From a virus (lineage: Duplodnaviria; Caudoviricetes), in IMG/VR virus record IMGVR_UViG_3300033067_001453, positions 1-34,130 of that record: 34,130 nucleotides of DNA; one strand, written 5' to 3'. Made by a program: the position numbers and the translations under genes. Shown one piece after another: positions 143 to 28,843 of this stretch (its first letter is position 1; each line of letters opens with the position of its first letter). The notes beneath the pieces were generated by a model, which saw only the letters and a program-made list of their open reading frames with translations, was not told the origin of the DNA and ran no database searches.

Positions 143-415
143 CTAGAAAACCCCCTCCAACGGATCAACGCCGGTCTGCGCCTTTGCCCTGGCCACGAGC
201 TGGTCGGCCTCACGGCCCAGCACCACCATGCGCAGGGCCAGCAACGCCTCCTGCGTGATCGTCTGCTTGCCACGCTTTCTGTTATGGAGGCATTCGTAGC
301 GCACACCGAGGGCATCTGTGAGTTCTTTGTATGAGAGACCGGATCTGCTGAGTAGAACGTTGTACTCCCGCACCATCTCTGGCTGTTTGTCGAGGACTGG
401 GTTGCGTTGTTTCAT
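143..415 (-). CDS. XRE-like helix-turn-helix protein with C-terminal tag (VDPLEGVF)
   Basis: LSRSGLSYKELTDALGVRYECLHNRKRGK HTH pattern; start moved to ATG 415 (ATGA overlap with upstream stop). Confidence 0.7.
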   Translation of the reverse strand: MKQRNPVLDKQPEMVREYNVLLSRSGLSYKELTDALGVRYECLHNRKRGKQTITQEALLALRMVVLGREADQLVARAKAQTGVDPLEGVF

Positions 416-600
416 TGTTGTGATTGTTCCTGGTTGTGGAGCGCGAACTCGTTGATCAGCGCGGCCATGCGGCCCTGCCACTCGTCCGGCATCCGGTGCA
501 TGGCCTCCGGTGACATCTCATGCCACGCGGGGTCGTAGAACGCCAGGGCCAGCGCGTCCCGTCCCGGTGTCTTGTCGTCGTCAGGTGATGGGCTGTTCAT
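412..600 (-). CDS. Hypothetical protein
   Basis: Fits the chain of overlapping minus-strand genes. Confidence 0.6.
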   Translation of the reverse strand: MNSPSPDDDKTPGRDALALAFYDPAWHEMSPEAMHRMPDEWQGRMAALINEFALHNQEQSQQ

Positions 601-877
601 AAGATGACTTCTTCATTGCGTTAAAATTGATTTGGTCAATCAGGTTGGACGCGAACTTGTTTCTTTCATCCCTTGATCCTTCACCTGTGATTGCATTGAG
701 CGCGCTGAGAAGCATGTCGTCAGCTTTCAGAAGTGAAGTTGCCGGGAACGCCACAACAACCTTGCTGGGATCAACACATTCCACAGCGATAAAACCTTGT
801 TCGGTCATCCTGTCCCGCTCTGCTGGATCTAGAGTTCCAGTTGGAAAGAGGACGAGTTGTTTTGGTATTGTGTTCAT
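581..877 (-). CDS. Hypothetical protein
   Basis: ATGA overlap with 874-1320; 98 aa. Confidence 0.65.
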   Translation of the reverse strand: MNTIPKQLVLFPTGTLDPAERDRMTEQGFIAVECVDPSKVVVAFPATSLLKADDMLLSALNAITGEGSRDERNKFASNLIDQINFNAMKKSSYEQPIT

Positions 878-1320
878 GGCTTCGGAAGTTTGAAGAACAG
901 CTTGGCTGGCTTGGTGCCGATGACCTCAAGGTTGTACGAACCCGACGTGTCCACGTTGCCAAACACCGCAACCACCGGCCCTTTGCACGGCAGCTCCCAG
1001 CGCAGCACTCCTTGATTGCCTGTCTTGTGCAGGTTGGTCGTTGCACCGGTCCCGCAGTCAGTCTCAGAGGCAATGAGAACACCTACGCCCCTGCTGGTGT
1101 CGTAGTCCACACGGGCGAAGTCCAGATCCTCAAACCCGCACTCCACAGCCACATCAGGATGGATCGAGATGATGAGCTTTGGAGACACTTTCTTCCGTGC
1201 TGGCCTGATGCAGTAGACGAGCTTCTGGCCGTCCTTGAATCCTGCCGGGGGTGTGGATGGCACAAGTGACGGGGCTTCCATCATCGCGGCTTCGAGATCA
1301 TCGAGTTCCTGGGTGGTCAT
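874..1320 (-). CDS. Hypothetical protein
   Basis: 148 aa ORF with A/C-rich leader; TTGACA upstream at 1361-1356. Confidence 0.7.
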   Translation of the reverse strand: MTTQELDDLEAAMMEAPSLVPSTPPAGFKDGQKLVYCIRPARKKVSPKLIISIHPDVAVECGFEDLDFARVDYDTSRGVGVLIASETDCGTGATTNLHKTGNQGVLRWELPCKGPVVAVFGNVDTSGSYNLEVIGTKPAKLFFKLPKP

Positions 1321-1369
1321 GATTGTGTTTCTGACTTAATGTTATAATGATATATTGTCAACTGACTGC

Positions 1370-1666
1370 TTACTTGACGTTCACACTGCCGACCATGCTG
1401 TTGAACCGCTGCACCAGCGGCTGGTCAAGCTCGGAGACCCAGACATCATTCTCTTCGATGTAACGCCACGCCGCCTCGAACCGCTGCTGTGTCGGGTTCT
1501 TGCAGAAGCGCAGCATCAGCCGCTGGGCCTCCGTCCGAACCTGTTGCTCGTGGGTCTGGGTAAGGCCGATGTAGAGCTGCCGGGCTCCATAGATCACGAA
1601 GACGACGGCTGTGGCGAACAGGGCTGGCCCGAGGGCGGTGAAAGGGTCTGCGGGTGGTGGGTTCAT
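1370..1666 (-). CDS. Hypothetical membrane protein
   Basis: N-terminal hydrophobic segment ALFATAVVFVIYGA; ATGA overlap. Confidence 0.65.
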   Translation of the reverse strand: MNPPPADPFTALGPALFATAVVFVIYGARQLYIGLTQTHEQQVRTEAQRLMLRFCKNPTQQRFEAAWRYIEENDVWVSELDQPLVQRFNSMVGSVNVK

Positions 1667-3810: not shown

Positions 3811-4563
3811 TTACCAGATGCCGGCAAGGGGGTCTAAAACAAAACGCCCGCCGAACAGATGACGTGTGCGCTTCTGGCCGGTTCTGCTGCTGCCGGTTGC
3901 ACCCATGCCCTTTGCACGTTCATGGAATGTCTTCCCTTCTTTCTGAAGCTTTGCCACCAGCTCGCCCACCGGGGTGTTGAGAGAATAAAGGTAGAGCCTG
4001 CAATAGTCCACGTTCTCCATGCGTGCAATCTGTGTGAGCGTGCGGAGTTCACCTTTCCACTCATATTTGATGTTTGACCGTTTGTTTGAACTTTGCTCAT
4101 CCCGTGTGGCCCAGACGCAGTTTTCTTTGGAATATCCCTTGTTGTTGTCCTTGCGTTCAAGTGAATGATCAGGGCTGGGCCGTGGCCCCATGTCCTCTGA
4201 AAAAATGTCAAAGTTATCCCGCCACTCGGCGGACACCCCAATGCCGCGAGACCCATAGTGTTTGAACGACGGATGCTTCTTGTTGTAGCACCTTGTCTTC
4301 ATGGTCTGCCAAATAACATAAACCGGGTTTTTGGATGAATGAAGAACCCCGTCTGTTTTGGTGATCATCTCAATGCGGAGGCACCCACATGACTGCGATG
4401 CCCCACGCACAAGACTGCCGTAGAGAACATTGTCCTTGATGACGCCACAATCACACCTGCACTTCCAGCGTGACTGCCCTCTTGTCTGTCTTGGTGCCTG
4501 CTCGATCACGAGCCAGCGGTTGAACCGTCTTCCGGTGAGGTCATTGAATCGTGGGTGCGCCAT
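3811..4563 (-). CDS. HNH-type homing endonuclease with C-terminal tag (LDPLAGIW)
   Basis: DLTGRRF, WKCRCDCG, SCGC, YGSRGI, HSLERKDNNKGYSKENCVWAT motifs. Confidence 0.85.
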   Translation of the reverse strand: MAHPRFNDLTGRRFNRWLVIEQAPRQTRGQSRWKCRCDCGVIKDNVLYGSLVRGASQSCGCLRIEMITKTDGVLHSSKNPVYVIWQTMKTRCYNKKHPSFKHYGSRGIGVSAEWRDNFDIFSEDMGPRPSPDHSLERKDNNKGYSKENCVWATRDEQSSNKRSNIKYEWKGELRTLTQIARMENVDYCRLYLYSLNTPVGELVAKLQKEGKTFHERAKGMGATGSSRTGQKRTRHLFGGRFVLDPLAGIW

Positions 4564-5726: not shown

Positions 5727-5869
5727 TTAACATATCCTTAGTGACACCCTGCCACCCTAAAACGGCCAGTCGCTCTCCCTTTGTACTTTTTTTTTCCTCT
5801 CTATTTTTTCTCTCACGTTAACCCAATTCAGCTAAATGTCTGTCCAAGGTGTCACTTAAGATATATTAA
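5727..5869. repeat. 25-bp imperfect inverted repeat around a pyrimidine tract; candidate replication origin
   Basis: 5727-5751 TTAACATATCCTTAGTGACACCCTG vs 5845-5869 CAAGGTGTCACTTAAGATATATTAA (21/25 complementary) in an AT-rich gene-free gap. Confidence 0.55.
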
Positions 5870-6139: not shown

Positions 6140-6643
6140 ATGAAAACTCAGCATCCTCAAACATCCCCTACGACCATCTACATGGCACTCTGTCTGCTCG
6201 TCAAAGCTCACCAGGTCAAAGTTTTGGCCGGTCTGTCCAACAGGATGGACAACCACACAATTGAGATTCAGCGGTTCTGTCATGCTCACATCTTGCAAGG
6301 CGGTGAACTCGACTCAGATGCAACATTCAGTTTTGAGTTGTCCAACGTGCGGAAACTCGTCTTCAAGGTGGATCATGAGCACAAGAATCCCCATGTCTAC
6401 AGTCGGCACCTTGTGACGGTTCACCCGGCCCCCAAGTCGGTCTACGGTTTTACCGTCGCTGCGGAAGGTGGCGGGAACCGAGACTTGGCAGGGAAAGGGA
6501 AATATCACTTCGCACTTGTCTCCCACTTCACACACCAGCTCCGGGCAGACGCTCCGGTTGACTGGGAAGCGCCCGACTTGCACATTCCCACGTTTTACAC
6601 GGGCCCGGAGGAAATGGCAGACCCGCTTGAGGGTGTCTGGTGA
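6140..6643 (+). CDS. Hypothetical protein with C-terminal tag (ADPLEGVW)
   Basis: 167 aa ORF, first gene of the rightward arm. Confidence 0.75.
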   Translation: MKTQHPQTSPTTIYMALCLLVKAHQVKVLAGLSNRMDNHTIEIQRFCHAHILQGGELDSDATFSFELSNVRKLVFKVDHEHKNPHVYSRHLVTVHPAPKSVYGFTVAAEGGGNRDLAGKGKYHFALVSHFTHQLRADAPVDWEAPDLHIPTFYTGPEEMADPLEGVW

Positions 6644-7437: not shown

Positions 7438-7550
7438 CCTCCCCGCAGCCGCCGCCATACGGGTCTATGAAACCTGTCCCGGCGATTGAGGGGAGGCGTT
7501 CACAACGAATGCCGACAAAGCAGAGAACAAACTAAAAACAGGAGACAGAC
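7438..7550 (+). repeat. Early intergenic stem-loop element
   Basis: CCTCCCC/GGGGAGG-closed long stem, loop CTATGAA, then GGCGTTC/GAATGCC hairpin and AAAACAGGAGA. Confidence 0.75.
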
Positions 7551-7808
7551 ATGAGCCTTAAATCAGCATTGGAAAAAGAGCTGCCTAAAACGTCACGCGA
7601 CTGGCAGGGGAGAGAACAGGCCATCTTCTACCCTAAGGGGCAGATTGTGGCACGGTGCGAATCAGTTGTGCTGATCCGTCAGACGAAAAAACGGTTTGCT
7701 GTGGTCTATGACCTGCAAACCAAAAAAGACCTTTCCCGAGAATCCGCGCTTATGGAGTTCGGGGAATGCTGCCTGCATCAGGCATCTTGTGAAGGTCTTT
7801 GCGATTGA
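7551..7808 (+). CDS. Early hypothetical protein
   Basis: AGGAG 6 nt before ATG. Confidence 0.75.
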   Translation: MSLKSALEKELPKTSRDWQGREQAIFYPKGQIVARCESVVLIRQTKKRFAVVYDLQTKKDLSRESALMEFGECCLHQASCEGLCD

Positions 7809-7875
7809 CGCTCAACCACTGCCCCAGGGGGCCTAGCACCTAGCCAGTGCTCCCCCGATGGGGCAGGATTGAACG
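7809..7875 (+). repeat. Early intergenic stem-loop element
   Basis: CTGCCCCA/TGGGGCAG and AGCAC/GTGCT stems, loop CTAGCCA. Confidence 0.65.
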
Positions 7876-7926
7876 CCACAAAGGCGGGACGGGTAAAAGG
7901 GAACACAAACTAAAACAGGAATCAGC

Positions 7927-8364
7927 ATGAAAACGAAAATGACAAAAGACTGTGAAAACTTTCTCGAAACCCTTCTTTGGGCATTGCCTGAAGACGAGCC
8001 GGAAGAAGTGCGCGAAGCAACGATCTATGATTTCTCCCCCGAATTCATCGCAGGGGTTGAGTCGTTTATCAGCGGCTTTCGTAAATTCGCCAGCGAGAGA
8101 AACCCGGAAGCATTGGGGCAGGCAGACGAGAGCCCCCGTTCATTCGGTGGAAACGTCTACTACAGTCTCTCCGGCCGTGGGGTCGGTTTCCGGGATGATG
8201 AAGAGACAGAGGCAATGCAGCCATTGCTAGAAGAGTACAGCGGGCGGGAATACCGGTTTGAAGATCTTGGAAGCAGTTTGAGCTTTCGGGAAGACGGGAA
8301 GCTGGATCTTTCTTTCATCCCTTCAGCCATTGACGAGTACCGGGCTAAAATGTTCAACCGTTAA
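7927..8364 (+). CDS. Early acidic hypothetical protein
   Basis: AAAACAGGA leader; FLETLLW...ATIYDFS...GRGVGFRD pattern seen in phage early proteins. Confidence 0.75.
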   Translation: MKTKMTKDCENFLETLLWALPEDEPEEVREATIYDFSPEFIAGVESFISGFRKFASERNPEALGQADESPRSFGGNVYYSLSGRGVGFRDDEETEAMQPLLEEYSGREYRFEDLGSSLSFREDGKLDLSFIPSAIDEYRAKMFNR

Positions 8365-8367
8365 GCA

Positions 8368-8479
8368 GACACTTCCCCATTGCCCCCTCATGTGGCCTCG
8401 CAAGCCACCCAGGGGACAAAGGGGAGGCGTTCAACAGTGAATGCCGACAGGAAACAACACTAAAACAGGAGATACCATG
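8368..8479 (+). repeat. Early intergenic element, near-identical to 8877-8983
   Basis: GACACTTCCCCATTGCCCCCTC...GTGGC-CTCGCAA-GCC...GGGGAGGCGTT...GAATGCCGACA...CTAAAACAGGAGA. Confidence 0.9.
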
Positions 8480-8875
8480 ATAACCACACAACGTAAAACG
8501 TACACACAAAACGGAATCGAGTACAATGAACCAGAGATCCCTGCGGGCTTTGTGGTCATTGATTCTTATACCCCGCATTCGTGTCCATGGGACTGCTACG
8601 GCAACCGACATTTGCGCGAGTGTTCCAATGTAATGACGGAAGCAGGCATTGAATATGCCGCGCTTGTCACACACCGCCGTGTCTGTGCTCCATTCCCATC
8701 AGGCCCTAATGGCCGCGTACGGTTTGGTGACGACATGATGCCGGGGGTGTACCGGCTTGCGGTGCCATCGGCGGAAGCAGAGAACGCAAGCAAAGCATTG
8801 ATGGGCCATCGGGCAGACGTGAAAGCGTGGATTGATGGCAAACGCGGCATGCCTAAAGCTTGCTGCCCTTATTGA
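8477..8875 (+). CDS. Early hypothetical protein
   Basis: ATG 8477 follows AGGAG; flanked by the two direct-repeat elements. Confidence 0.75.
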   Translation: MITTQRKTYTQNGIEYNEPEIPAGFVVIDSYTPHSCPWDCYGNRHLRECSNVMTEAGIEYAALVTHRRVCAPFPSGPNGRVRFGDDMMPGVYRLAVPSAEAENASKALMGHRADVKAWIDGKRGMPKACCPY

Positions 8876-8876
8876 T

Positions 8877-8983
8877 GACACTTCCCCATTGCCCCCTCCT
8901 GTGGCCTCGCAAGCCGCCCAGGGGACAAAGGGGAGGCGTTTACAACGAATGCCGACAAGGAAACTAAAACAGGAGACACCATG
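8877..8983 (+). repeat. Early intergenic element, near-identical to 8368-8479
   Basis: Direct repeat of about 110 bp. Confidence 0.9.
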
Positions 8984-9181
8984 AACAGACAGAACACACC
9001 AAGAGCTTGGTGCATCATGCAGACGATAATTCCGTTCCACCCGGCCATTGTGTCAGGGATGGGGCGCAATCGCAATACTTGGGACTACGAAGCCCGGAGC
9101 AAACGGACGGCGCAAAGATGGCTCAAGGCTTTGAGGGAGGCGGCTCCATCGGCTCACTACGTGATTGAGGAATCGCGATAG
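8981..9181 (+). CDS. Early hypothetical protein
   Basis: AGGAG before ATG. Confidence 0.7.
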   Translation: MNRQNTPRAWCIMQTIIPFHPAIVSGMGRNRNTWDYEARSKRTAQRWLKALREAAPSAHYVIEESR

Positions 9182-9312
9182 TAAGCACCCATGGCCGCAC
9201 AATGCGGGATAACCACCCGCCCGGCCTCCACCTGCCCTGTATTCGGCATTCCGGCAATCACGCCTTTGAGTGTCGAAACGACAGGGCAGAAAACAAACAG
9301 GAGACAGACCAA

Positions 9313-9495
9313 ATGACCACACTCCAGTTATGCGAGACAGTGACAGCAAAAGGCACGTTCTACTATATCGACGGAAAACGGGTCTCCCGTGATTCGTTCC
9401 TCGCTGCGAAGTTTCAACGTCGCATGGACTCATTCGTCACACGAGTCGAACGCCATGCAGTGAAGAACTTTTCAACGATTTACGTGCCAGCCTGA
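9313..9495 (+). CDS. Early hypothetical protein
   Basis: MTTLQLCETV... start after AAACAGGAGA. Confidence 0.7.
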   Translation: MTTLQLCETVTAKGTFYYIDGKRVSRDSFLAAKFQRRMDSFVTRVERHAVKNFSTIYVPA

Positions 9496-9577
9496 GAAGC
9501 ACCCCAGCACAAAGGCCCATGGCGAATAACCATCGTCCCGGCCCCCGTGCATCCAATCAGCCATTAAACAAATGCAG

Positions 9578-9606
9578 TTGACAAACCCCCGGCCATGTGT
9601 TACTAA
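9578..9606 (+). promoter_or_regulatory. Sigma70-like promoter
   Basis: TTGACA-17 bp-TACTAA; spacer AACCCCCGGCCA similar to the promoter at 13160. Confidence 0.5.
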
Positions 9607-9747
9607 TTTAGTAATGCGTGCCACAGAAGCAGGGCAGACCGGGCGCAGTTAAACAATTTCCAGCGGTGAACGCTGGCGTTAGGAAAGACAGAAGCAGGGC
9701 AAAACCAACGGGGGCGACACCCGCTCAAAACGTCAAAAGCAAAACAC

Positions 9748-10182: not shown

Positions 10183-10188
10183 ACCACA

Positions 10189-10249
10189 GGTCGAAACCGT
10201 CCCCGCACACGCGGGGCGGTCTGAGGGTTGAGCCCTCACTGACGAGACC
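10189..10249 (+). ncRNA. Type II hammerhead ribozyme; predicted cleavage after C10221 (GUC)
   Basis: GGTC-GAAA-[stem III CCG..CCCCGC/GCGGGG..CGG]-TC-[stem I TGAGGG/CCCTCA]-CTGACGA-GACC; full catalytic core and all three stems. Confidence 0.9.
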
Positions 10250-10299
10250 GCCAGAAGCAGAGCAAGGTAACAACACAAAAACAGGAGAGACAGAACACC

Positions 10300-14362: not shown

Positions 14363-14824
14363 ATGGACACACTCACCGACATCATCAGGCAGCGGCACTC
14401 CCGCATCAAGTCAGCATCGCCACGCGCTGACATCGGCCTCTTCAACTGGGGTGGCAAGTTCGTCTGCTACGGCGACGACGCAGACCGCGTGAACGAGTGG
14501 CTGGCGGGCACCGGCCTGTGCGAATACCTAGAGCTGTCACTGGAGCCATGGGACTGGTCTCTTGCCGAGGTCAGCATCCCGCTGGTCTCCATGGACAAGG
14601 CCGTGCATCTGCTGTTGCAGCACGCCTCCGTGGCGCTGGTGGACCAGTCCGACGAGCGTGGTGTTCCACGGTTCGTGACGTTTCTGTTTTTGAATAAGTC
14701 CGGGTCGGAAGGATTGCCACCATGGACAAAACCCCTGTGCAAAATTGACGGCCCTGAGTTTTTTGAGCACAAAGCTTCCCAGATCTTTGAGGCTGCTGTC
14801 GACCCGCTGGCCGATGTGTTTTAA
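14363..14824 (+). CDS. Stand-alone MutS domain I-like protein with C-terminal tag (VDPLADVF)
   Basis: IGLFNWGGKFVCYGDDA...SIP...AVHLLL...VALVDQ follows the MutS_I pattern. Confidence 0.6.
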   Translation: MDTLTDIIRQRHSRIKSASPRADIGLFNWGGKFVCYGDDADRVNEWLAGTGLCEYLELSLEPWDWSLAEVSIPLVSMDKAVHLLLQHASVALVDQSDERGVPRFVTFLFLNKSGSEGLPPWTKPLCKIDGPEFFEHKASQIFEAAVDPLADVF

Positions 14825-15271: not shown

Positions 15272-15555
15272 AAATTGAAAAGCTGAAGCCCGGTCAGATT
15301 GTTTATGATGTTCACAGGCACAAAATGGGGAACACCACACTTACCAGCATGGGCGTGTGGAATGTACGAATCGTTGAGGTCAACATCGAAAAACAGACTG
15401 TGCTGGCTTCATGGAACTGCAACCAAGAACAAACTTATTACCGTGGCACATGGAGCAAGTGGAGAGCCAACAAACCAGTTCTTGTCAAGGTGGGATGGGC
15501 ACAACGTCTTGCCACCCGTGCTGAATTGAAGGCCTTGAAGGAGGGGAAGCCATGA
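15268..15555 (+). CDS. Hypothetical protein
   Basis: MKIEKLKPGQIVYDV...; ATGA overlaps. Confidence 0.7.
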   Translation: MKIEKLKPGQIVYDVHRHKMGNTTLTSMGVWNVRIVEVNIEKQTVLASWNCNQEQTYYRGTWSKWRANKPVLVKVGWAQRLATRAELKALKEGKP

Positions 15556-15800
15556 ACACACTTTTTTCTGATTACAGCAAACCGGCCTACTATTACCGGC
15601 TTTTTCACGAGGGACGGCCCAAGCCACAGGTTTTCGATTTCATGCTGGATTACAACATGCCAAGATATGTGATTCAAGAACTGGCCGGAACAGGTGTTAC
15701 CATGTTGCTCCCACCCCAGCCCTTGGTGGATGACCTTTTCCTCGGTACCCCGGCTGGAAAACCAGCAACAACGGTTGACCCCCTCGACGGTGTTTGGTAG
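15552..15800 (+). CDS. Hypothetical protein with C-terminal tag (VDPLDGVW)
   Basis: ATGA overlap; tag supports real translation. Confidence 0.7.
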   Translation: MNTLFSDYSKPAYYYRLFHEGRPKPQVFDFMLDYNMPRYVIQELAGTGVTMLLPPQPLVDDLFLGTPAGKPATTVDPLDGVW

Positions 15801-15815: not shown

Positions 15816-18422
15816 ATGCCCGCAGCCAAATATTTTACAGGCCAGTCCGTCACCACATGGGTGTCCTCATGCCCGGCCACCACCTTCCGCGAGCTGGTCG
15901 AGACCTGCATCCACACCCCCATCCCCCTGGCGCTCACGCAGGACGGGTTCATGGCGATGCCCAAGGCTGCCCGTGACAAGTACAAGCGGGACAAGCTGAC
16001 CCTGCTCACCCCGGCTGCCTTCAAGGCGGACAACGTGCCCCGCAAGACCGAGAACGCCACGGTCTGCAACCTGATCTTCCTCGACATTGACGAGGACAAG
16101 AAGACCGGCCTGTGCCCTGCCGCCCCGTTCGTCAAGAACCCGCAGATCCTGAGAGACCAGCTCGCCCCGCTGGCCTTCGTGGCCTACCACACGATCAGCA
16201 GCACCCCTGAGAAGCCGCGCATCCGCATCATGGTCTCGGCTGATGCCATCCCGTTGTCATTGTACCCGGCAGCCGTGGCCACCATCGCCCAGCGCATTGG
16301 CCTCACCATCATCACCCCCGAGTCAGAGGTGGCCGTGCAGCCCATGTTCCTGCCGGTGCTGTTCGCCGGTCAGCACATTGACGAGCACCCGACCTTCTGC
16401 GGTGAACTCATCGGTGAGGCCCTGCAACCCCGGCAGGTGCATGATGTGGAGATGGACGAGATCATGGGCGTGGAGCCCAAGGGATATTCCAGCGACAAGG
16501 CCTACAACAGTGAAGACCCGCTGGCCTTTCTCCGCCCTCCGGTCCCTGAGATCACCTTGGAGATTGCCAAGGAAGCTCTCTCCCATGTGGACCCGGACAT
16601 CGAGATGAAGCCGTGGATCGCGATGGCATCAGCCCTCAAGCACCAGTTCTCCCACAAGCACGCGGCTGAAGCATTCGAGATCTTTGATGAGTGGTCGGCC
16701 AAGGGCATCAAGAAATACCTCGGGCGCGATGACACACTGACCAAGTGGAACTGCATCCAGCCCACACCAGTTGGCCGGGTGCCCGTCACCATCCGCTCGC
16801 TGATCCATGCCGCCGTGGATGGTGGCTACAACGCAGCCCCGGTGAAGGAGGTTTCGTTCAACTCGGTGCTCAACTGGATACGGGAGGAAGGACGGACCAA
16901 GACCGACCTCACCACCGTGGCCCTTCAGAAGATCATGGCAGCCGTCATGCTCTCGGACACAGAGGAAGGGGTGTTGCTCAATGCCGTCATCCGGCAGGCC
17001 AAGAAGCTCGGCATTGACGCCAGCATCGGGGATCTGCGCAAAGATCTCAAGAAGCTCAAGGCCAAGGCGGCTCAGAAGGATGAGAGCCAGGACAGCAAGG
17101 AGATGCCCGGATGGCTCAAGGGCTGGTGTTATGTCACCTCCCGCAATGAGTTTTTCCAACACCGCACCACCCGGCGCATGGACTGTGATGCGTTCAACAA
17201 CGCCTTTGGCCGCAAGCTCCTTCCCGACCCGGCCACAGCAGGGGAGGACGCGGACCCGGCAGTGTTGTCCAAGCCGATCATCAGGCCCCAAGACTTCGCC
17301 CTCAACCTGCACAAGATCCAATGTGTGGACGGCTACCGTTACACACCCTCGGAGCCGGGGAAGATCTACACCAAGAAGGAAGGGCTGTGGTACGTCAACA
17401 CCTACCGGGCCAACTTCCCCACCCCGACTAAAGAGTATGCTGACGAGGCCAAGGCTCTGATTGATAAACACCTTGAAGTGCTCATCGCCAACCCGCAATA
17501 TCGGTCAGTGCTGTGGGACTGGATGGCCTTCAATGTGCAGTTCCCCGGCGTGAAGGCCCGTTGGGCTGTGCTGTTCCAAGGTGGCGCTGGTTGTGGCAAA
17601 ACATTCTTCTTCAAACTGATGCTGGCGGTTCTCGGTCAGGGCCACGCCAAACTGGTCAATAAAGCCTCCATCTCGGGAAACTGGAACGAGTGGGCCACGG
17701 GAGCCCAGTTGGTCGGCATCGAAGAAATCCGTGTGACGGGCGAGAACCGTTACGAGATCATGAACAAGCTCAAGGAGCTGATCACCAATGATGACATCCC
17801 GGTCAACCAGCGCAACAAGGACACGCGCACCGAGGAGAACATCACCAACTACATCGCGTTCTCGAACCACCACGATGCACTTGCCTTGGCTCACGATGAC
17901 CGGCGCTACTTTGTGCTGAAGGCCATCCTGCAAGAGGAAGAAGAGATCAAGGCCCTGTCCGAGACCGGTTATTTCACCGCCCTCTTTGACCTGCTCAAGG
18001 AACGTGCTGGTGCCCTGCGCTATGTGTTTGAAAATTACCCCATCAGCAGTGACTTCGACGCCAACGGGCGTGCGCCCTACACCATCTTCCGTGACCAGGT
18101 CATTGAGGACACCAGTGATGAGGTCACAACGCTGATCCGCCGCCTGATTGAAGAGGGCGAGCATGTGCAGGTCAACAGCGACTTCATCGTGGCCAAGGAT
18201 CTCAGCGCCATCTTCGACCTTGAGGGTGCCCAAGGGTGCAGCGACCACCAGCTTGCCCAGCGTCTGCGCAACCTCGGGTACCACTCTGGCAAACGCTCCA
18301 TGCTTGACGGCAAGAAACAGACCATCTGGGTCCGCAATGGACGGCTCAAGGACGTAACCGACCTCGGCGCTTATGTCAGGCAGAAGATGGAGGACCAGAA
18401 AAAAATCGCAGACATCTGGTGA
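15816..18422 (+). CDS. DNA primase-helicase (prim-pol N-terminus, PriCT-2, SF3-type NTPase); ends KKIADIW
   Basis: FLDID and YHTISS...PRIRI primase motifs; FDEWS...KY...KW PriCT-2; Walker A GGAGCGKT; Walker B IEE; FSN sensor. Confidence 0.9.
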   Translation: MPAAKYFTGQSVTTWVSSCPATTFRELVETCIHTPIPLALTQDGFMAMPKAARDKYKRDKLTLLTPAAFKADNVPRKTENATVCNLIFLDIDEDKKTGLCPAAPFVKNPQILRDQLAPLAFVAYHTISSTPEKPRIRIMVSADAIPLSLYPAAVATIAQRIGLTIITPESEVAVQPMFLPVLFAGQHIDEHPTFCGELIGEALQPRQVHDVEMDEIMGVEPKGYSSDKAYNSEDPLAFLRPPVPEITLEIAKEALSHVDPDIEMKPWIAMASALKHQFSHKHAAEAFEIFDEWSAKGIKKYLGRDDTLTKWNCIQPTPVGRVPVTIRSLIHAAVDGGYNAAPVKEVSFNSVLNWIREEGRTKTDLTTVALQKIMAAVMLSDTEEGVLLNAVIRQAKKLGIDASIGDLRKDLKKLKAKAAQKDESQDSKEMPGWLKGWCYVTSRNEFFQHRTTRRMDCDAFNNAFGRKLLPDPATAGEDADPAVLSKPIIRPQDFALNLHKIQCVDGYRYTPSEPGKIYTKKEGLWYVNTYRANFPTPTKEYADEAKALIDKHLEVLIANPQYRSVLWDWMAFNVQFPGVKARWAVLFQGGAGCGKTFFFKLMLAVLGQGHAKLVNKASISGNWNEWATGAQLVGIEEIRVTGENRYEIMNKLKELITNDDIPVNQRNKDTRTEENITNYIAFSNHHDALALAHDDRRYFVLKAILQEEEEIKALSETGYFTALFDLLKERAGALRYVFENYPISSDFDANGRAPYTIFRDQVIEDTSDEVTTLIRRLIEEGEHVQVNSDFIVAKDLSAIFDLEGAQGCSDHQLAQRLRNLGYHSGKRSMLDGKKQTIWVRNGRLKDVTDLGAYVRQKMEDQKKIADIW

Positions 18423-18515: not shown

Positions 18516-18890
18516 ATGAAAATCGAAATCACCATCACTCCCGAGTCCGCCAATATTCTCGCCGCCGCCATCGTCTCGGCCATGGGTGGCGCTGCCCCGG
18601 CTGCCGCCATCACCGAAACTTCCACAGTCGGTCAGACCAAGGAAACCGCCAGCAAGCCAGCCAAGGCTGCCAAAGCCGAGAAGCCCGCGGCCCCGGCTGT
18701 CACGCTGGAAGACCTCCGCGCCGTGGCCACCGAGTGCGTGAACGCTGGCAAGAAGGACAAGCTCGTCGAGATCAACAAGAGCTTCGGTGCCACCGGCCTC
18801 TCCAAGATCGAGCCCGACAAGTACCCTGAAGTGCTGAAGGCCCTCAAGGCGCTGGCTGCCGAGGCCCCGGAAGAAGACCCTTGCGCGTAA
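18516..18890 (+). CDS. Ala/Lys-rich protein typical upstream of DUF2800
   Basis: VTLEDLRA...GK...FGATGLSKIEPDKY pattern and position. Confidence 0.75.
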   Translation: MKIEITITPESANILAAAIVSAMGGAAPAAAITETSTVGQTKETASKPAKAAKAEKPAAPAVTLEDLRAVATECVNAGKKDKLVEINKSFGATGLSKIEPDKYPEVLKALKALAAEAPEEDPCA

Positions 18891-19133: not shown

Positions 19134-20363
19134 ATGAAACCGTCCCCCCGTCCGCCAGTTATCTCGCTTTCGCCGTCCGCCGCGTCCCGCTGGCTGACCT
19201 GCACTGCCAGCCCACGGTTCATCGCTGAGAACGCCGACAAGATCGGCAGCACGGACACCGTGTGGAACGTGGAGGGCGACATGGCCCATGCCGTGGCCAA
19301 CGCAGTGCTGCTCGGCCAGCCGCTGCCCACCGAGTCCAGGGGCAAGAAGATTCCGAAGGACAAACTGCCTGAGATGGTGAAGCACGCCAGGGGGTTCAAG
19401 GCGTTCGTGGATGTGCCGGGACTGATTGACCTGCATTCTGAATTGAAGATCTCACTTTGGTACATGCCCAACCGCAATGGTTATGTGGATGCTGCCAGCC
19501 GTGGCAACGATTATGTCCGCATCACTGATCTCAAGTATGGTCAGGGTGTTGCCGTCACCGCTGAAGAAAATGAACAGATGGCCATTTATGCCCGCTCATG
19601 GGTGGAGCAAGAATGGGATGACCAGCACAACCTCACCGAGGACACCGTGTTCGAGCTTGCCATCTACCAACCACGCATCCGTGAAGGCGAGAAGATCTCC
19701 ATCTGGCGGCTCACATGGGCCGAGCTGAAGGAGTTCACCGACAACATCGAGCGCATCGCCAAGAAGATCATTGCAGGCATTGACGAGACCTTCCGCCCGT
19801 CACCCGAGGCTTGCCGGTTCTGCCCGATGAAGAAGCCTGCCAAAGGCCCACCATGTGCCGCCTACACCGAGTGGACTGGGGCTGACAGGGCCATTGTCAT
19901 CAGCGACGTGAACCCGAACGAGGTGATGACCGATCTGCGTCAGTTCGACGAGCGCACCCTCCGGCTCATCGCCGCCAACCGGAACAAAATAAAGACGTTC
20001 GTCGATGATGTGTACAAGGCGTTCTACGGTGAGGCCGTCAACGGCAAGATCCCCGAGGGGTTCAAGCTTGTCCGTGGCAAGGGGTCACGGTCATGGGAAG
20101 ATCCCCAGAAGGCAGCCGAGTTCCTTGAGGTCATGTTCGGTGATGAAGCCCAGACGGAGCCCAAGCTCAAGACACCGAAGGCCATTGAGGACATGATGAA
20201 GGCCCACGGCATGAAGCCAGGCGGACTGATGCCCTACATCAGGAAGTTCGAGGGCGGCGTGCTGCTGGTGCCCAACGATGACCCGCGTGAGTCGATCAAT
20301 ATCAACCCGGCTGACGTGTTTCAGAATTTGGACGTGGATTCACTGCCCGCGTCTGAGGAATAG
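19134..20363 (+). CDS. DUF2800 PD-(D/E)XK (Cas4-like) exonuclease
   Basis: LSPSAASRWLTC, EGDMAH, GYVD, DLKYGQG, QMAIYA, CRFC. Confidence 0.9.
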   Translation: MKPSPRPPVISLSPSAASRWLTCTASPRFIAENADKIGSTDTVWNVEGDMAHAVANAVLLGQPLPTESRGKKIPKDKLPEMVKHARGFKAFVDVPGLIDLHSELKISLWYMPNRNGYVDAASRGNDYVRITDLKYGQGVAVTAEENEQMAIYARSWVEQEWDDQHNLTEDTVFELAIYQPRIREGEKISIWRLTWAELKEFTDNIERIAKKIIAGIDETFRPSPEACRFCPMKKPAKGPPCAAYTEWTGADRAIVISDVNPNEVMTDLRQFDERTLRLIAANRNKIKTFVDDVYKAFYGEAVNGKIPEGFKLVRGKGSRSWEDPQKAAEFLEVMFGDEAQTEPKLKTPKAIEDMMKAHGMKPGGLMPYIRKFEGGVLLVPNDDPRESININPADVFQNLDVDSLPASEE

Positions 20364-21160: not shown

Positions 21161-21805
21161 ATGGCTAATACATCAGGCAAAAAAGAAATCGCAGGCATTC
21201 TCATCGAGAATGGCCGTCTCAGCTTCGACGACCTCTACGAGCCCACGGCCTCCGTGGAAGGCGGGCGTCTCAAGTACCGCTGCAACATCATCATTGACCC
21301 TACCACCGACACCGGCAAACGCAACATCAAGAAGATCGAGAACCTGATCAGGCAGGTCGAGCTGGAAAAGTTCAAGAAGTCCCCGGCCACATACAAGACC
21401 GATGACCGCAAATGCTTCGTGGACGGTGACTCCTGCCTCAACCAAAAGACCAACGAGGTCTATGACGGCTACGCGGGCATGGCCATTCTCAAGGCTGCCA
21501 ATGACAAGCGCCCGTCCGTCGTGGACCGTGACCTCACTCCGCTCACCGCCGAGGACAACAAGACCTACGCCGGGTGCTACTGCAACTTCTTCATCCGCAT
21601 CTATGCAGTCTCGGGTGCAGACAAGGGCGGCAACGGTCTCTTCGCCAGCCTCGAAACCGTGCAGTTTGTCAAGGATGGCGAACCTTTCGGCGGTGCTCCG
21701 GTTGATCCGAAGTCAGTGTTCAAGAACCTGGAGAAGGACGGCGACTCGGACGACGAGGCCGGGGACGACGAGGCCGGGGACGACGATCTTGACGGCGTGA
21801 TGTAA
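21161..21805 (+). CDS. Single-stranded DNA-binding protein (DUF2815, gp2.5-like); acidic tail ends DDLDGVM
   Basis: RLSF..L, DGD, YAGCY, L..VQFVKDGEPFGG, acidic C-terminus. Confidence 0.9.
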   Translation: MANTSGKKEIAGILIENGRLSFDDLYEPTASVEGGRLKYRCNIIIDPTTDTGKRNIKKIENLIRQVELEKFKKSPATYKTDDRKCFVDGDSCLNQKTNEVYDGYAGMAILKAANDKRPSVVDRDLTPLTAEDNKTYAGCYCNFFIRIYAVSGADKGGNGLFASLETVQFVKDGEPFGGAPVDPKSVFKNLEKDGDSDDEAGDDEAGDDDLDGVM

Positions 21806-21941: not shown

Positions 21942-22218
21942 ATGAAACCTACCCCTTATTTCGTTTTTGATGTTGAATCTGTTGGCCTCCATGGCGGGGC
22001 TTTTGCTGTGTGCTTGTATTGACGACGATCGTGTTTCGAGAAAATGGGAAGGTCCATATCCTTTTGTCGAGATCTCCAGCATCATGATGGCTGCGGGCAT
22101 GGACCCGATGATGGATTACGAGCGAACCCCTTCCGAGATGCCAAAGCACAACCCATACACGGACTCCGTTCAATCGGCTCGTCTGCTGTTTGAAGCTCTT
22201 AGCAAACTGGCATTTTGA
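21942..22218 (+). pseudogene. Internally deleted, frameshifted DEDDh 3'-5' exonuclease
   Basis: 21942-22022 reads MKPTPYFVFDVESVGLHG (ExoI); another frame ends ...PKHNPYTDSVQSARLL (ExoIII). Confidence 0.6.
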
Positions 22219-22220
22219 AG

Positions 22221-24629
22221 ATGGCCCCCCCAACCACCAGCCCGAAGCGCCGTCGTGTCCACATGGACTACGAAACGTTCAGCGCAGCCCCCTTGGGCGG
22301 CAAGACAGGCGTGGGTGCTCACCGCTATGCGCGTGACCCGAGCACGGAGATCCTGCTCATCGGTCTGGCTGTGGGTGATGACCGCCCCGTGGTGTGGGTC
22401 AATCCAGAGATCTGCGAGAACCCCAATCCCGAGGATCAAGAGATTGCCGAGGGCATCCTTGCTGGTCTCTGTGATCCCAATGTCGTCATTTTCGCTCACA
22501 ACGCTCCATTTGAGGTTGCCATCACCCGTGCTCTTTTTGCCAAGGCTACGGATTATCCTTCACCCCAACCACACCAGTTCCGCTGCACACAGGCGATGGC
22601 CCGGCGTGCCGGGCTGCCACCAGCCCTTGAGGACGTTGGCAGCATCCTCGGTCTGCGGGCTCAGAAGGACAAGGCCGGTCACGATCTCATCAAGAAGTTC
22701 TGTGTTCCCCAGAAGAACAAACAGAAGCCGACCACCAACGCCAAGCTGCTGGCCAAGAGGGCTGAGAGCCCGTTCCGCGAGCGCATCCTGCCCACCGACT
22801 CCGAGGCTGACATGGCCGACTTCAAACGGTTCATCGAGTATTGCCGTCAGGACGTGGAGGTGGAGCGCCAGGCCGCGCGCACGTTGAAGTACTTTGCCCT
22901 GAGCGGTGACGCTCTGGCCACGTTCCAGCTCGATCTCACCATCAACGAGCGCGGGTTCCCGGTGAACCTGACAGCCATCAACAACGCGGTCAAGATCATT
23001 GAGGAGACCGAGGCCAAGACCGGAGCCGAGTTCTTCGCACTCACGGGACTCAAGCACACCCAGCGGGAAAAGATACTCACTTGGTTGCAGCAACGCGGCT
23101 GGCAGGGCAAGGATCTCAAAGCGGAGACCGTGGACGCGCACCTCGATAGTGCCGAGGGTGCCGGTAGCTCGGAGTCGGACGAAGATGATGAGGACAGCCA
23201 GGAGGCCGAGTTCGGTGAAGACGACGGTACCGACATCAGCCGGGCGCTCATGTTGCGCAAACGGCTTACCTACGCTGCTGTCAAGAAGGTGAAGGCCATC
23301 CTCGCCATGGTCGGGCCTGATGACAACCGGGTCCGTGGCACACTCATCCTGTGGGGTGCCGGGCCGGGCCGCTGGGCCGGGTTCAAGGTGCAACCCCAGA
23401 ACATGAAGCGCCCGTCCACCCGGCTGGTGCGTGACATGCCGTGGAAAGCCATGGGGTTCAAGTCCGAGGGCAAAGCCTTGAGCTGGCTCACCCAAGCCGC
23501 GTATCGGGACATTCTGGCCGGACGTGATGCCGACTGGCTGGAGATGGTCTATGGTCCACCCCTTGAAGTGGTCAGCTCGTGCATCCGTCATTTCATCCAC
23601 GACTATCAGGTGTGTCCGCATTGCGGTGGCACGGGCAAGCCCCCGGAGAAGTGGTACAAGCGCAGCGAGCCGTGCTCGAAGTGCGCCAGCATGAAATACC
23701 TTGAGAACTACATGCTCTCCGCCGATTTCGCCGCCATTGAGGCCCGTGGTGTGGCATGGCTGGCCGGTCAGGAAGACGCGCTCGAAGAGTACCGCCAGGG
23801 CATTGACCGTTACAAGAAGATGGCCAGCAGGATCTACGGCGTGCCCTATGAAGAGGTGCAGGAGTTCCCCCAGCGTTTCGTGGGCAAGCAGGCCGTGCTG
23901 CTACTGGGATACCAAGGCGGTGGCCCCAAGTTCCGGCAGACCTGTGAGAAGTATGGCTATTTCGACCTGCCCGAGGGCTTCGAGGATGAGGTCGTCAAGA
24001 TCTACCGTGAGTCGCACCCCGAGATTGTGAAGCTCTGGCGCAAGATGGACCAGTGCTCACGGGCTGCCGTGTTGAGCCCTGGCAAGGTGATCGAGGTCAA
24101 CGACAAGCTCTCGTTCCGGGTCATGGAGATTGCCAATGGCACGAGCTTCCTGCTGCTCCGGCTGCCGAGTGGCCGGGAGATCAGCTATCCGATGCCCGAG
24201 CTGGTCAAGTGCCTGAGCTACACGCACAAGGGCAAGCGGGTGCAGATCTTTGAACCGCAGCCCGAGGACATCCAGAAAGCCATCGAGCGCGTGGGTGAGA
24301 AAAAGTATTTCCTGAAGGATGTTGTCACTTATTATGGCAAGACCGGGAAAGATGGCACGAAGGCTTGGGGTAGGGTTCCTACCTACGGAGCAAAACTAGT
24401 CGAGAATGCCACCCAAGGATTAGCCGCCGACTTTATGGTCAATGGCGCTCTCAACTGCGAAAAGGCCGGATACGAGATTGCCACCCTCATCCATGACGAA
24501 TCTCTCAATTACAAGAAGCCGGGACAGACACCGGAGGAACTTTGCAGGCTTCTCGCCAGCACACCAGAATGGGCAAAGGGCATGCCTCTGCTGGCCGAAG
24601 GAAAAACAGTGCCTTTTTACATGAAATGA
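22221..24629 (+). CDS. Family A DNA polymerase with 3'-5' exonuclease
   Basis: DYET, AHNAPFE, YCRQDV, QPQN, motif A ADFAAIEAR, motif B RFVGKQAVLLLGY, motif C IHDE. Confidence 0.95.
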   Translation: MAPPTTSPKRRRVHMDYETFSAAPLGGKTGVGAHRYARDPSTEILLIGLAVGDDRPVVWVNPEICENPNPEDQEIAEGILAGLCDPNVVIFAHNAPFEVAITRALFAKATDYPSPQPHQFRCTQAMARRAGLPPALEDVGSILGLRAQKDKAGHDLIKKFCVPQKNKQKPTTNAKLLAKRAESPFRERILPTDSEADMADFKRFIEYCRQDVEVERQAARTLKYFALSGDALATFQLDLTINERGFPVNLTAINNAVKIIEETEAKTGAEFFALTGLKHTQREKILTWLQQRGWQGKDLKAETVDAHLDSAEGAGSSESDEDDEDSQEAEFGEDDGTDISRALMLRKRLTYAAVKKVKAILAMVGPDDNRVRGTLILWGAGPGRWAGFKVQPQNMKRPSTRLVRDMPWKAMGFKSEGKALSWLTQAAYRDILAGRDADWLEMVYGPPLEVVSSCIRHFIHDYQVCPHCGGTGKPPEKWYKRSEPCSKCASMKYLENYMLSADFAAIEARGVAWLAGQEDALEEYRQGIDRYKKMASRIYGVPYEEVQEFPQRFVGKQAVLLLGYQGGGPKFRQTCEKYGYFDLPEGFEDEVVKIYRESHPEIVKLWRKMDQCSRAAVLSPGKVIEVNDKLSFRVMEIANGTSFLLLRLPSGREISYPMPELVKCLSYTHKGKRVQIFEPQPEDIQKAIERVGEKKYFLKDVVTYYGKTGKDGTKAWGRVPTYGAKLVENATQGLAADFMVNGALNCEKAGYEIATLIHDESLNYKKPGQTPEELCRLLASTPEWAKGMPLLAEGKTVPFYMK

Positions 24630-26126: not shown

Positions 26127-26130
26127 ACAA

Positions 26131-26243
26131 TTGGAAGGCTGGGTTGAGCGGTTGCAAAGGAGAGCCTAACGCTGGTGCGATTCCAGCAGCGATGCCTAGT
26201 CAATAGCGGGATGACAACCCGCCCGCTCAACCCAGCCTTCCAA
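26131..26243 (+). ncRNA. Candidate structured RNA: perfect 21-bp stem enclosing two 5-bp/7-nt hairpins
   Basis: 26131-26151 is the exact reverse complement of 26223-26243; GCTGG-TGCGATT-CCAGC and GCGGG-ATGACAA-CCCGC inside. Confidence 0.6.
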
Positions 26244-26263
26244 AACACAACAAACACACGAAC

Positions 26264-26614: not shown

Positions 26615-26619
26615 CCACC

Positions 26620-26973
26620 ATGCCCCCCAAGTTCTACAACCCGGCCAAGCACAAGCCCCGTGAGAAAGCCATCGAGGCTGCCATTGGCCGGTATGCCGTG
26701 AGCAGGGGGTGCCTGTGGTGGAAGTTCACCAGCCCGAACAACCGCTCGGTGCCTGACCGGTGGGTGCTTACCCCCAATGGTGTGGCTGCTCTCATGGAGG
26801 TGAAACGCCCCGGCGAGAAGCTGACAGTCGGACAGGCCCAGAAGATCCAGGACGTGCATGACCGCAACGGGCTTGCCGACTGGACGGACAACGTGGAGAA
26901 GGGCAAACGGATCATCGACGAATGGTGCTCGCTGCCGGGGCCGAGGGATGGCAAACTGGAGGGCGTGTGGTGA
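26620..26973 (+). CDS. VRR-NUC endonuclease; ends DGKLEGVW
   Basis: EKAIE, KFTSP, VPDR, EVKRPG, Q motifs. Confidence 0.9.
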   Translation: MPPKFYNPAKHKPREKAIEAAIGRYAVSRGCLWWKFTSPNNRSVPDRWVLTPNGVAALMEVKRPGEKLTVGQAQKIQDVHDRNGLADWTDNVEKGKRIIDEWCSLPGPRDGKLEGVW

Positions 26974-27908
26974 AACCTCGCATTTCAATATCATTTTCAG
27001 GTGGGCGCACAAGTGCGGTGATGACGAAACTGGTGATCGAAAATCTCGGCCCCACCCATGAGATCAATGTGGTGTTTGCCAACACTGGACAGGAGCACCC
27101 GGCCACATTGGATTTTATCAAGGAGTGTGATGAGCGGCTGGGGTTTGGCACTGTGTGGCTTGAGGCGGTGGTGGACCCCACCATAGGCAACGGCGTCAGG
27201 CACAGGATTGTCACCTATGAAACCGCAAGCAGGGATGGCAGGCCATTCAGGGATTACATTGCCAAGTACGGCATTCCGAACATGGGGAACCCCTCCTGCA
27301 CGGCCCGGCTGAAAGAAAATGTGATGGAAAGTTATCTGCGCAGCATTGGGTGGAAAAATGGGACTTATAAAAAAGCCATTGGCATCCGGGCAGATGAGGC
27401 ACACAGGATGTCAGCCCGTGCGGCTGAGGCCGGGTTCATCTATCCACTTGTGGGCATGGGGTACACCAAGGAAAAAGTGGTGCAGCATGTCAGGTCGTGG
27501 GGGTTTGACCTGACGATTCCCGAGCATCTGGGCAACTGCACGTGGTGCTGGAAGAAGTCATGGCGCAAGCTCCTTACCGTGGCCAAGAACAACCCTGAGT
27601 TCATGGAGTTCCCGGCAAAGATGGAGAAGGAGTTCGGCGGGTTCAAAGTGACACCGGCAACAGCGTCGCCGGACGGACGGAGGAACTTCTTTCGAGGCCA
27701 CAGGACCACCACGGATCTCATGGTAGGCGTGTTGTTCGATGATTTTGAGGAGTTCACCGACAAGCACCACATCCCGTACGACGAGAGATTCGACTTCGGC
27801 GTTGGCTGCGGGGAGTCGTGTGAGGTGGGGTCTGATGAAAGGTATGGCGTGGAGGTGCCCGACGAGGAAGAGATAACCGACGAAGACCTCCTTGCCGACA
27901 TCTGGTAG
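26970..27908 (+). CDS. PAPS reductase-family (PP-loop) protein; ends EDLLADIW
   Basis: SFSGGRTS, ANTGQEH, CTARLK, GIRADE, GNCTWC; GTG start overlapping VRR-NUC stop. Confidence 0.85.
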   Translation: MKPRISISFSGGRTSAVMTKLVIENLGPTHEINVVFANTGQEHPATLDFIKECDERLGFGTVWLEAVVDPTIGNGVRHRIVTYETASRDGRPFRDYIAKYGIPNMGNPSCTARLKENVMESYLRSIGWKNGTYKKAIGIRADEAHRMSARAAEAGFIYPLVGMGYTKEKVVQHVRSWGFDLTIPEHLGNCTWCWKKSWRKLLTVAKNNPEFMEFPAKMEKEFGGFKVTPATASPDGRRNFFRGHRTTTDLMVGVLFDDFEEFTDKHHIPYDERFDFGVGCGESCEVGSDERYGVEVPDEEEITDEDLLADIW

Positions 27909-27914
27909 TCCTGC

Positions 27915-28127
27915 ATGCACTACTCCCCGTCAGAACCCCAGCGGCTGGCCCGCAGTCACCTGCTGGCGCACCCAGACACGTTTCTGCTCATGGGGATGGG
28001 CCTTGGCAAGACGGCCACCATCATTGACCACCTTGATACCCTGCTGCTCACCGGAGAGGCCAGAGCCATGCTGGTGCTCGCTGCCGGGGCCGAGGGATGG
28101 CAAACTGGAGGGCGTGTGGTGAGATGA
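27915..28127 (+). pseudogene. Truncated duplicate of the SNF2 helicase 5' end fused to a duplicate of the VRR-NUC 3' end
   Basis: 27915-28076 matches 28843-29004 (159/162); 28072-28122 matches 26923-26973 (51/51). Confidence 0.9.
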
Positions 28128-28843
28128 ATATTCAACTGATATTTGGTGAATGCCTTGAGTACATGCAGGAAATAAAAACCGGCAGCGTGGACATGGTGAT
28201 GGCTGATTTACCTTATGGCACGACTGCCTGCAAATGGGATGCAGTGATTCCCTTTGCCCCGCTGTGGGATCAATACCGGCGCGTGTGCAAAAAGAATGCG
28301 GCTATTGTGCTCACTGCGAGCCAGCCGTTCACAAGTGCTTTGGTAATGAGCCAGATCGAATTGTTTAAATACAGTTGGACGTGGGCAAAGACAAATTGCA
28401 CTGGATTCGCGAATGCGAAAAAACAGCCGCTTCGACAAATCGAGGATGTTCTAATTTTCTACACTGGTCAGCCGACGTATAATCCTCAGGGCGTGACGAA
28501 ACTCTCTTCTGGTAGAGTGCGGACAAAAGAAACAGGCGACGTTATGGGTCGAACAGGGTTTAAAGATGGTTACGTTCAAGAGGTAACAAATTACCCTAAA
28601 AACCTTCTCCAGATACCCTCAGAAAGAGGGTATCACCCGACTCAAAAGCCCGTCGCCCTAATGGAATACCTCATCCGCACCTACACCAACGAAGGCGAGA
28701 CGGTGCTCGATAATACCATGGGCAGCGGCACAACTGGGGTGGCCTGCATCAACACAGGGCGCAATTTCATCGGCATCGAGCGCGACCCCGAGTACTTCAA
28801 GATCGCACAAAGCCGGTGTGATCCTCTCGCTGGTATCTGGTGA
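28124..28843 (+). CDS. N6-adenine/N4-cytosine DNA methyltransferase (beta class); ends CDPLAGIW
   Basis: DLPYG catalytic motif before HPTQKP and LDNTMGSGTTG SAM-binding motif. Confidence 0.92.
   Translation: MNIQLIFGECLEYMQEIKTGSVDMVMADLPYGTTACKWDAVIPFAPLWDQYRRVCKKNAAIVLTASQPFTSALVMSQIELFKYSWTWAKTNCTGFANAKKQPLRQIEDVLIFYTGQPTYNPQGVTKLSSGRVRTKETGDVMGRTGFKDGYVQEVTNYPKNLLQIPSERGYHPTQKPVALMEYLIRTYTNEGETVLDNTMGSGTTGVACINTGRNFIGIERDPEYFKIAQSRCDPLAGIW

Follow-up and report, generated by a model that had tools for sequence, protein, structure and literature searches.

The window analysed here is a 34-kb virus record with a replication module (IMG/VR record IMGVR_UViG_3300033067_001453, Caudoviricetes; the whole stretch of 34,130 nucleotides), and 10 of the 63 genes that we judged real in it end in variants of one short C-terminal peptide tag, of which DPLEGVW is typical. 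The tag is conserved as protein, its carriers are mainly DNA-acting, related phages have their own lineage-private versions of it, one tag has been replaced by another in a gene that different lineages share, and tags persist across swaps of the polymerase and of the primase. We consider it probable that the tag is a docking peptide for one phage-coded replication partner other than the DNA polymerase. [quoted passage not shown]

An earlier note on this DNA had listed ten proteins with the ending, and re-reading the sequence showed all ten C-termini and their stop positions to be correct (Table 1). It had also stated that the tag always abuts the stop codon, and indeed a six-frame scan of the window with the pattern [LI][ADE][GD][VI][WFM], which like the stricter pattern below was derived from the observation itself, placed all 11 matches at stops and none internally. 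In 100 fifth-order Markov simulations the mean was 0.03 matches at stops (maximum 1) and 1.33 at internal positions. The strict DPL form occurs six times at stops, never internally, and not at all in the simulations. The 11th match is a copy of the 51-nt 3' end of the VRR-NUC gene (28072-28122). Lysis and 6.8-10.8 kb genes among the 63 are free of the tag, as had been claimed, and so are tail-fibre genes. An exact scan of viral contigs for DPL[AED]G[VI]W-stop, with CTN leucine codons only, returned eight loci: one is G001, a complete 64-kb relative with six tagged genes, none of them in the structural arm; another, L011, belongs to the same phage as the window; two are lone tagged open reading frames (ORFs) in contigs without a blastp match to window ORFs; and four hold no tagged ORF. 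So few real loci indicate that the exact motif is narrow.

Examination of codon usage places the conservation at the level of protein and not of DNA, as proposed earlier. Among the six strict tags, the first, second and third codon positions have pairwise nucleotide identities of 0.88, 0.79 and 0.32, and the same codon is used in 20 of 67 same-residue pairs; for 60 tagged genes from 10 other genomes the values are 0.85, 0.82 and 0.45. Because the strict tags diverge at the third position, we conclude that selection acts on the peptide. Family matches agree with the suggestion that eight of the ten carriers are DNA-related or plausibly so, with two proteins having no known function; the PAPS-reductase-like carrier would presumably act on DNA. 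The SSB ending counted among the ten is present in the window, although it is not conserved, as four of four close relatives end in EEDPLA or EEDPLG, without the aromatic anchor.

Relatives of the primase were collected from viral contigs (best 80 of 306), genomes (11 of 11) and metagenomes (best 80 of 321). In many of them the core proteins share one tail, and that tail differs by lineage: [ED][ED]DFC (EDFC), NLD[DE][YF] (LDDY), E[DE]W[IV] (EWI), [KE]DFW[GD] (FWG), DLL, IDVI or DFL, with DEEV, DEEL and DPAxGL as further types in related phages. Tagged families in these phages include the primase-helicase, DUF2800 exonuclease, SSB, VRR-NUC, SNF2 and small terminase. Comparing the last five residues of non-homologous proteins at 91 loci that have the primase and at least two other marker genes, we saw that tails match better within than between genomes, with z of 6.1 for primase and exonuclease, 6.5 for exonuclease and SSB and 6.6 for VRR-NUC and SNF2 at 55 clusters (3.4, 4.8 and 4.4 at 26 clusters). 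Among primase, exonuclease, SSB, VRR-NUC and SNF2, nine of ten pairs reach p<0.02 at 55 clusters and seven of ten p<0.03 at 26. The control segment 15 residues upstream of the tails is near null, and no polymerase pair shows tail similarity in the same 91-locus test. Each genome in a tag-by-genome table has between 1 and 10 ends in its own tag against fewer than 0.12 expected, and the 52 off-diagonal cells contain three matches.

The system extends to annotated phages. A shared tail in the replication region is clear in 10 of 19 annotated records, weak in three (R16L, PaMx28 and pCB2051-A) and not seen in six. The clear cases are DEEV-type in Enc34 and SAP012, DEEL-type in FoX4, JS26 and AXY1, GL-type in BcepNazgul, AH2 and Carli, and DDLL in P26218 and ctfPj964, the last two bearing DDLL on four proteins beside a different, untagged AAA_25 primase-helicase. 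The VRR-NUC protein of Carli ends in DPLDGL, close to the window tag, and in 11 Chi/Nazgul-like phages the within-genome z is about 10. As a separate observation, small proteins of SAP012 and R16L (L267:10922-11275 and L277:3093-3506) end in DDDIPF, which we take to match the bacterial SSB C-terminal tip; these proteins are possible host-SSB mimics.

The clearest view of one label exchanged for another comes from the PAPS-reductase-like gene. Over 307 residues the window protein shares 78.5% identity with its counterpart in G012, an FWG-tag phage, which ends ETNFWG; core genes of the two phages are 30-49% identical. Both genes are near-identical up to ERYGVE and then continue as EEEITDEDLLADIW and DDEDFDETNFWG, each being its genome's tag, and a third homologue, in an EWI phage, ends in EEGEWI. 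Judged from these sequences, the simplest reading would be horizontal transfer followed by relabelling, in either direction. Methylase, HNH and MutS-I homologues likewise carry their own genome's tag in several genomes, but not in every one.

Among 61 tagged non-core ORFs scanned, those with a family match include HNH endonucleases, N6/N4 and C5 methylases, PAPS-reductase-like and Mom-like proteins, a TET-associated glycosyltransferase (TAGT), radical SAM, terminase-small-like, helix-turn-helix (HTH) and DUF3310 proteins. None of the 61 matches a capsid, tail, portal or lysis family, with over half lacking an informative match. The likely small-terminase cluster has 11 members, of which 7 bear the tag of the genome they belong to, and the window's member is untagged; several HNH homologues carry their own genome's tag and others none. 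The methyltransferase lies after the polymerase in G001, G002 and L106 with its tag kept, and the locus in G001 is different from that in the window, with the tag intact. In G012, two overlapping frames (L251:9153-9965 and L251:9172-9936) both match methylases and both end in FWG (FNEEDFWG and FNEAQFWG).

The evidence supports describing the tag as an address label for DNA-acting proteins, the more so given the lineage-specific versions and the gene with differing tails; the hubs that the earlier note had named fare less well, and polymerase, host beta clamp, procapsid and degron are all disfavoured, by polymerase swaps, by private variation and by the lack of a tagged head protein. The absence of any tagged head protein from our findings argues against a procapsid hub, and lineage-private variation together with similar tags in different host classes argues against a host beta clamp or host C-degron. 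Given the polymerase swaps, the tracking of the primase and the occurrence of tags across host classes, we therefore favour a phage-coded partner, with the primase-helicase first. Among 14 genomes, primase-helicase distance tracks tag similarity best (r -0.50, partial -0.28) and SSB distance weakest (-0.15). Accordingly weak is the lead of the primase-helicase as predicted reader, which we name tentatively; the DUF2800 exonuclease, SNF2 or phrog_408-like protein together form a less probable set, the SSB is an unlikely reader and another phage protein a still more unlikely one, the polymerase being scored apart as a rival. From these patterns we infer that the tag binds a partner, which partner may read it and what it would serve. 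The last hydrophobic residues and the free C-terminus would likely dock in a pocket of a single partner, itself likely phage-encoded and bound to replicating phage DNA, and such a reader would co-evolve with the tag. The tag may serve to gather on phage DNA the nucleases, helicases, methylases and other DNA modifiers, and in many cases the small terminase too.

Several results weigh against the docking reading or against its choice of reader. The primase correlation comes from 14 related genomes, without a significance test, and apart from polymerase A, TerL and Cro each core protein, also the primase-helicase, bears a tag in at least one genome. P26218 keeps DDLL with an unrelated AAA_25 primase-helicase. 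Tree congruence, tested on the 43 loci that dereplication left of 61, gave no discrimination among the candidates, with 12 Fitch changes for the polymerase, 13 for the primase, 12 for the exonuclease and 14 for the SSB. The pairs primase-SSB, exonuclease-VRR-NUC and SSB-SNF2 lose significance at 26 clusters, the upstream control in the 11 Chi/Nazgul-like phages is not null (z 1.8-3.1), and the regular expressions of the tag-by-genome table were written after the tails had been seen, for 13 genomes chosen for long tags. Nor is the system universal: an unsupervised whole-genome search recovered a tag in 15 of 26 records, and no shared tail was seen in the replication regions of DU_RP_II, Salvo, PCA1, RHEph04, Javan626 and MJing1. 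As for the SSB, its tree rejects an EDFC-only clade in an approximately unbiased (AU) test (p 0.022, 43 rows), and the exonuclease, VRR-NUC, primase, SNF2 and polymerase trees do not (15-17 rows); the taxon sets differ, and this is therefore a mild point against the SSB. An SSB swap was not supported (p 0.67).

The rival that survives best is a T7-style arrangement with the phage's family A DNA polymerase as a tool belt that would offer the tags a docking pocket. We regard it as unlikely, although it would explain why polymerase A, alone among the core proteins, has no tag in any of the 24 records and why no polymerase pair shares tails, P26218 fits it by retaining polymerase A, and the tails of T7 gp2.5 and gp4 bind T7 polymerase in the available text of PMC12339929. 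However, AH2 and BcepNazgul share DPA[EDA]GL-type tails with polymerases that have no BLAST match to each other (family B-like and family A, respectively) and primase-helicases that share 49% identity. Tags are likewise kept beside family B-like polymerases in JS26, FoX4 and AXY1, and three family B-like enzymes themselves have tag-like ends (EYEL, EESL and EDSL), with an SSB-polymerase z of 3.4 in the 11 Chi/Nazgul-like phages. Because tags survive exchanges of polymerase A for B and of the primase, a polymerase hub is weakened, and polymerase A may be untagged because its C-terminus, with invariant Y802 and K804, is constrained. A co-fold of polymerase (11-804), SSB (9-180) and a 32-residue tag peptide gave scores of 0.01 and 0.00 against a mark of 0.32, with controls not folded, and speaks neither for nor against such docking.

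A host protein hijacked by the phage proteins, such as the beta clamp or an SSB-tail-binding enzyme, is quite unlikely as the reader. In its favour are the acidic character and hydrophobic ends of the tags, which resemble the host SSB tip, the DDDIPF ends of two phage proteins, and the tag shared by AH2 and BcepNazgul, both of which infect Burkholderia. Against this, sister lineages use clearly different tags (EDFC and EWI), Carli, with a Sphingomonas host, has DPLDGL like the Burkholderia phages, JS26 from Serratia is closer to FoX4 from Xanthomonas than to Enc34, and the tags do not contain the QL[SD]LF clamp motif. A very improbable reading is that the tag acts as a degron or stability signal at the C-terminus and removes DNA-metabolism proteins late in infection. 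The strictly terminal position, the hydrophobic last residues and the presence of regulators and nucleases among the carriers would suit this, but a host protease should impose one motif per host and not private motifs per lineage, and ClpXP and Prc degrons do not resemble acidic tails; the small terminase, which is required late, often has the tag (7 of 11), and we recognised no conserved family of proteases in the core clusters. Least credible is a DNA- or RNA-level feature, such as a copied recombination cassette or a site where ribosomes bind for the following gene; the codon pattern largely refutes it. In its favour, GGAGG can arise from LEG codons, two of the window's tags overlap the start codon of the following gene and the 51-nt tag-bearing end was duplicated as DNA, but third codon positions diverge as above, a start codon opening 50 codons lies within -8 to +12 nt of the stop in only 23 of 60 tagged genes, and the tag is always in frame at the stop.

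Table 1. Tagged genes, reader candidates and associated features of the window
Feature	Coordinates	Strand	C-terminal end (tag coordinates)	Remarks
HTH protein	143..481	-	VDPLEGVF (143-166)	phrog_4583, E 1.7e-4
HNH endonuclease	3811..4563	-	LDPLAGIW (3811-3834)	phrog_374
167-aa protein, no family	6140..6643	+	ADPLEGVW (6620-6643)	
Stand-alone MutS-domain-I-like protein	14363..14824	+	VDPLADVF (14801-14824)	
82-aa protein before primase, no known function	15552..15800	+	VDPLDGVW (15777-15800)	
Primase-helicase (PriCT-2 + DUF5906)	15816..18422	+	KKIADIW	weakly leading reader candidate
phrog_408-like protein	18516..18890	+	EEDPCA	truncated, tag-like
DUF2800 exonuclease	19134..20363	+		untagged in window, tagged in many relatives; reader candidate
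Enc34/gp2.5-type SSB (PF10991)	21161..21805	+	DDLDGVM	weak tag; reader candidate
Family A DNA polymerase	22215..24629	+		phrog_17; untagged in all 24 records compared
VRR-NUC nuclease	26620..26973	+	DGKLEGVW	
PAPS-reductase-like protein	26970..27908	+	EDLLADIW	
SNF2 5'-end copy joined to VRR-NUC 3'-end copy	27915..28122	+		11th tag match; not a separate gene
N6/N4 DNA methyltransferase	28124..28843	+	CDPLAGIW (28820-28843)	
SNF2-type helicase	28840..30270	+		untagged in window, tagged in EDFC, FWG and EWI lineages; reader candidate

Several of the window proteins have informative relatives. The HTH orthologue in G001 (53%) ends in ADPLADVF, and the L106 homologue (44%) of the 82-aa protein retains DPLDGVW. 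A variant of the tag is kept in six of seven homologues of the 167-aa protein, whose tag lies on a predicted disordered tail (residues 146-167, predicted local distance difference test score (pLDDT) <50) and for which fold and Atlas searches gave no clear fold match (best Z 7.0). A distant relative of it, P0254, is fused to an HTH-like C-terminal part and ends in DDPLDGIW, and P0248 and P0249 end in HPLHGVW. The MutS-domain-I-like protein has Atlas structure matches to MutS_I (template modelling (TM) score 0.53-0.63), and its homologues end in NLDDY, NLDEY, DDDLL, YLDEY and EEDFV. The polymerase model matches Pol I and T7 structures (TMq 0.43-0.52); the protein contains an acidic, disordered loop (314-331) and, around residues 466-490, a CPHC...CSKC insertion. 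Truncated EEDP[LCT][AG] ends are found on the SSB and phrog_408-like proteins of the window lineage, and in EDFC, EWI and most FWG phages the tails of SSBs likewise depart from the tag, as though adjusted to be weaker. The idea that defence systems which sense SSB tails drive their diversification was considered and not used, as the available text of PMC13402713 points to the OB fold.

The segment 26923-29020 has the order VRR-NUC, PAPS-reductase-like gene, SNF2 5'-end and VRR-NUC 3'-end copies, methylase and SNF2. This arrangement, which has even-depth coverage in runs X1 and X2 and overlapping contigs, likely resulted from two insertion variants recombining at a TGGTG microhomology; contigs that skip the methylase (X4) or both genes (X9) exist. 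Elsewhere in the window, the early genes (7478-10296) have repeated upstream elements, including a 64-nt near-identical pair (8368 and 8877) and AAAACAGGAGA motifs before starts, the DUF7666 gene contains internal 27-nt tandem repeats (11432-11838), a perfect 21-nt inverted repeat with copies 71 nt apart lies at 26131-26243, and a 25-nt inverted repeat occupies a divergent non-coding region at 5727-5869. The stretch is present in river and freshwater runs, with no RNA data set among the holders listed, and a distant relative (28% primase identity) occurs in a Prosthecobacter metagenome-assembled genome, the sole match in 121 genomes of its order. Among the relatives, many primase homologues from P0017 to P0116 end in a second motif, KNL[CGS]M[ED]L[LIV][FY], which differs from the LDDY tag that their genomes use. 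In the LDDY-type G006, G007, G020 and G021, polymerase matches are spread over several short frames, which suggests split or interrupted polymerase genes. P0127 and P0128 are 1101-1114 aa long, possibly with insertions, and the structural arm of G001 (L013:1513-11961) includes a 3482-aa protein with almost no family match.

Phages swap genes constantly, yet little is understood of how a foreign enzyme becomes wired into a replisome new to it. In these phages the wiring is likely visible in sequence, as a tail of 4-8 residues whose version is set by lineage. As a possibility that we hold tentatively, a large phage group may run a private postcode: a previously undescribed phage-coded reader, neither polymerase nor clamp, would mark the phage's own replicating DNA or compartment; all DNA-acting proteins, new methylases and homing nucleases included, would have to evolve the lineage's C-terminal code; and code and reader would drift together, insulating co-infecting phages and gating useful horizontally acquired genes. 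The tag system would offer tag-reader pairs that are naturally orthogonal and a rule by which to predict DNA-acting phage proteins among those of unknown function; through the small terminase, where tagged, it would also be a candidate link of replication and DNA modification with packaging. Since the system is also found in the cultured phages Enc34, JS26, AH2, BcepNazgul, Carli and P26218, the reader should be findable by peptide pull-down.

Short acidic-hydrophobic peptides are known as docking sites for many DNA enzymes from the bacterial SSB C-terminal tip and the beta-clamp motif. In the SSB-tip system one protein has the tag and many have pockets, whereas here many proteins carry the tag. 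The beta-clamp motif has a QL[SD]LF-like consensus that is conserved across bacteria; DPLxGVW, EDFC, FWG, LDDY, EWI, DEEV and xxGL do not fit it and vary by lineage. We found no description of the motif or of lineage-private tails in the literature, with subscription papers mostly beyond reach and supplements not covered. What this analysis contributes is the long, information-rich tag, the multi-lineage code table, the gene with lineage-swapped tails and the persistence across polymerase and primase swaps.

Two phage systems offer the closest parallels. In T4, the C-termini of gp43, gp33 and gp55 are clamp-binding motifs that dock on gp45, according to the accessible part of PMC2988020, and the same source describes the features that our tags resemble: closely similar, interchangeable hydrophobic-acidic C-termini on unrelated proteins, with flexible linkers and one phage reader. 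The replicative polymerase is untagged here, unlike in T4, and no match to a clamp family was found among 62 proteins of the window and 35 of the roughly 92 ORFs of G001, many ORFs being without a family; the compared records yielded no further universal cluster. Furthermore, the gp55 segment is conserved among T4-related phages in that portion of PMC2988020, whereas the tags here change between sister lineages. In T7, the acidic C-terminal tails of gp2.5 (SSB) and gp4 (primase-helicase) dock on the gp5 polymerase (PMC12339929 and PMC5686142, in their available text), at a basic patch seen in PDB 6P7E with a DTDF peptide (PMC12339929, likewise). Similar to T7, the window has a gp2.5-type SSB and a family A polymerase, and its SSB and primase-helicase loosely share an acidic tail with a hydrophobic last residue. 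In contrast to the two carriers in T7, up to ten unrelated proteins are tagged here, including methylases, HNH endonucleases, regulators and small terminases, the tag is private to the lineage and differs in a gene common to lineages, and it does not depend on a family A polymerase, as AH2, JS26, FoX4 and AXY1 demonstrate.

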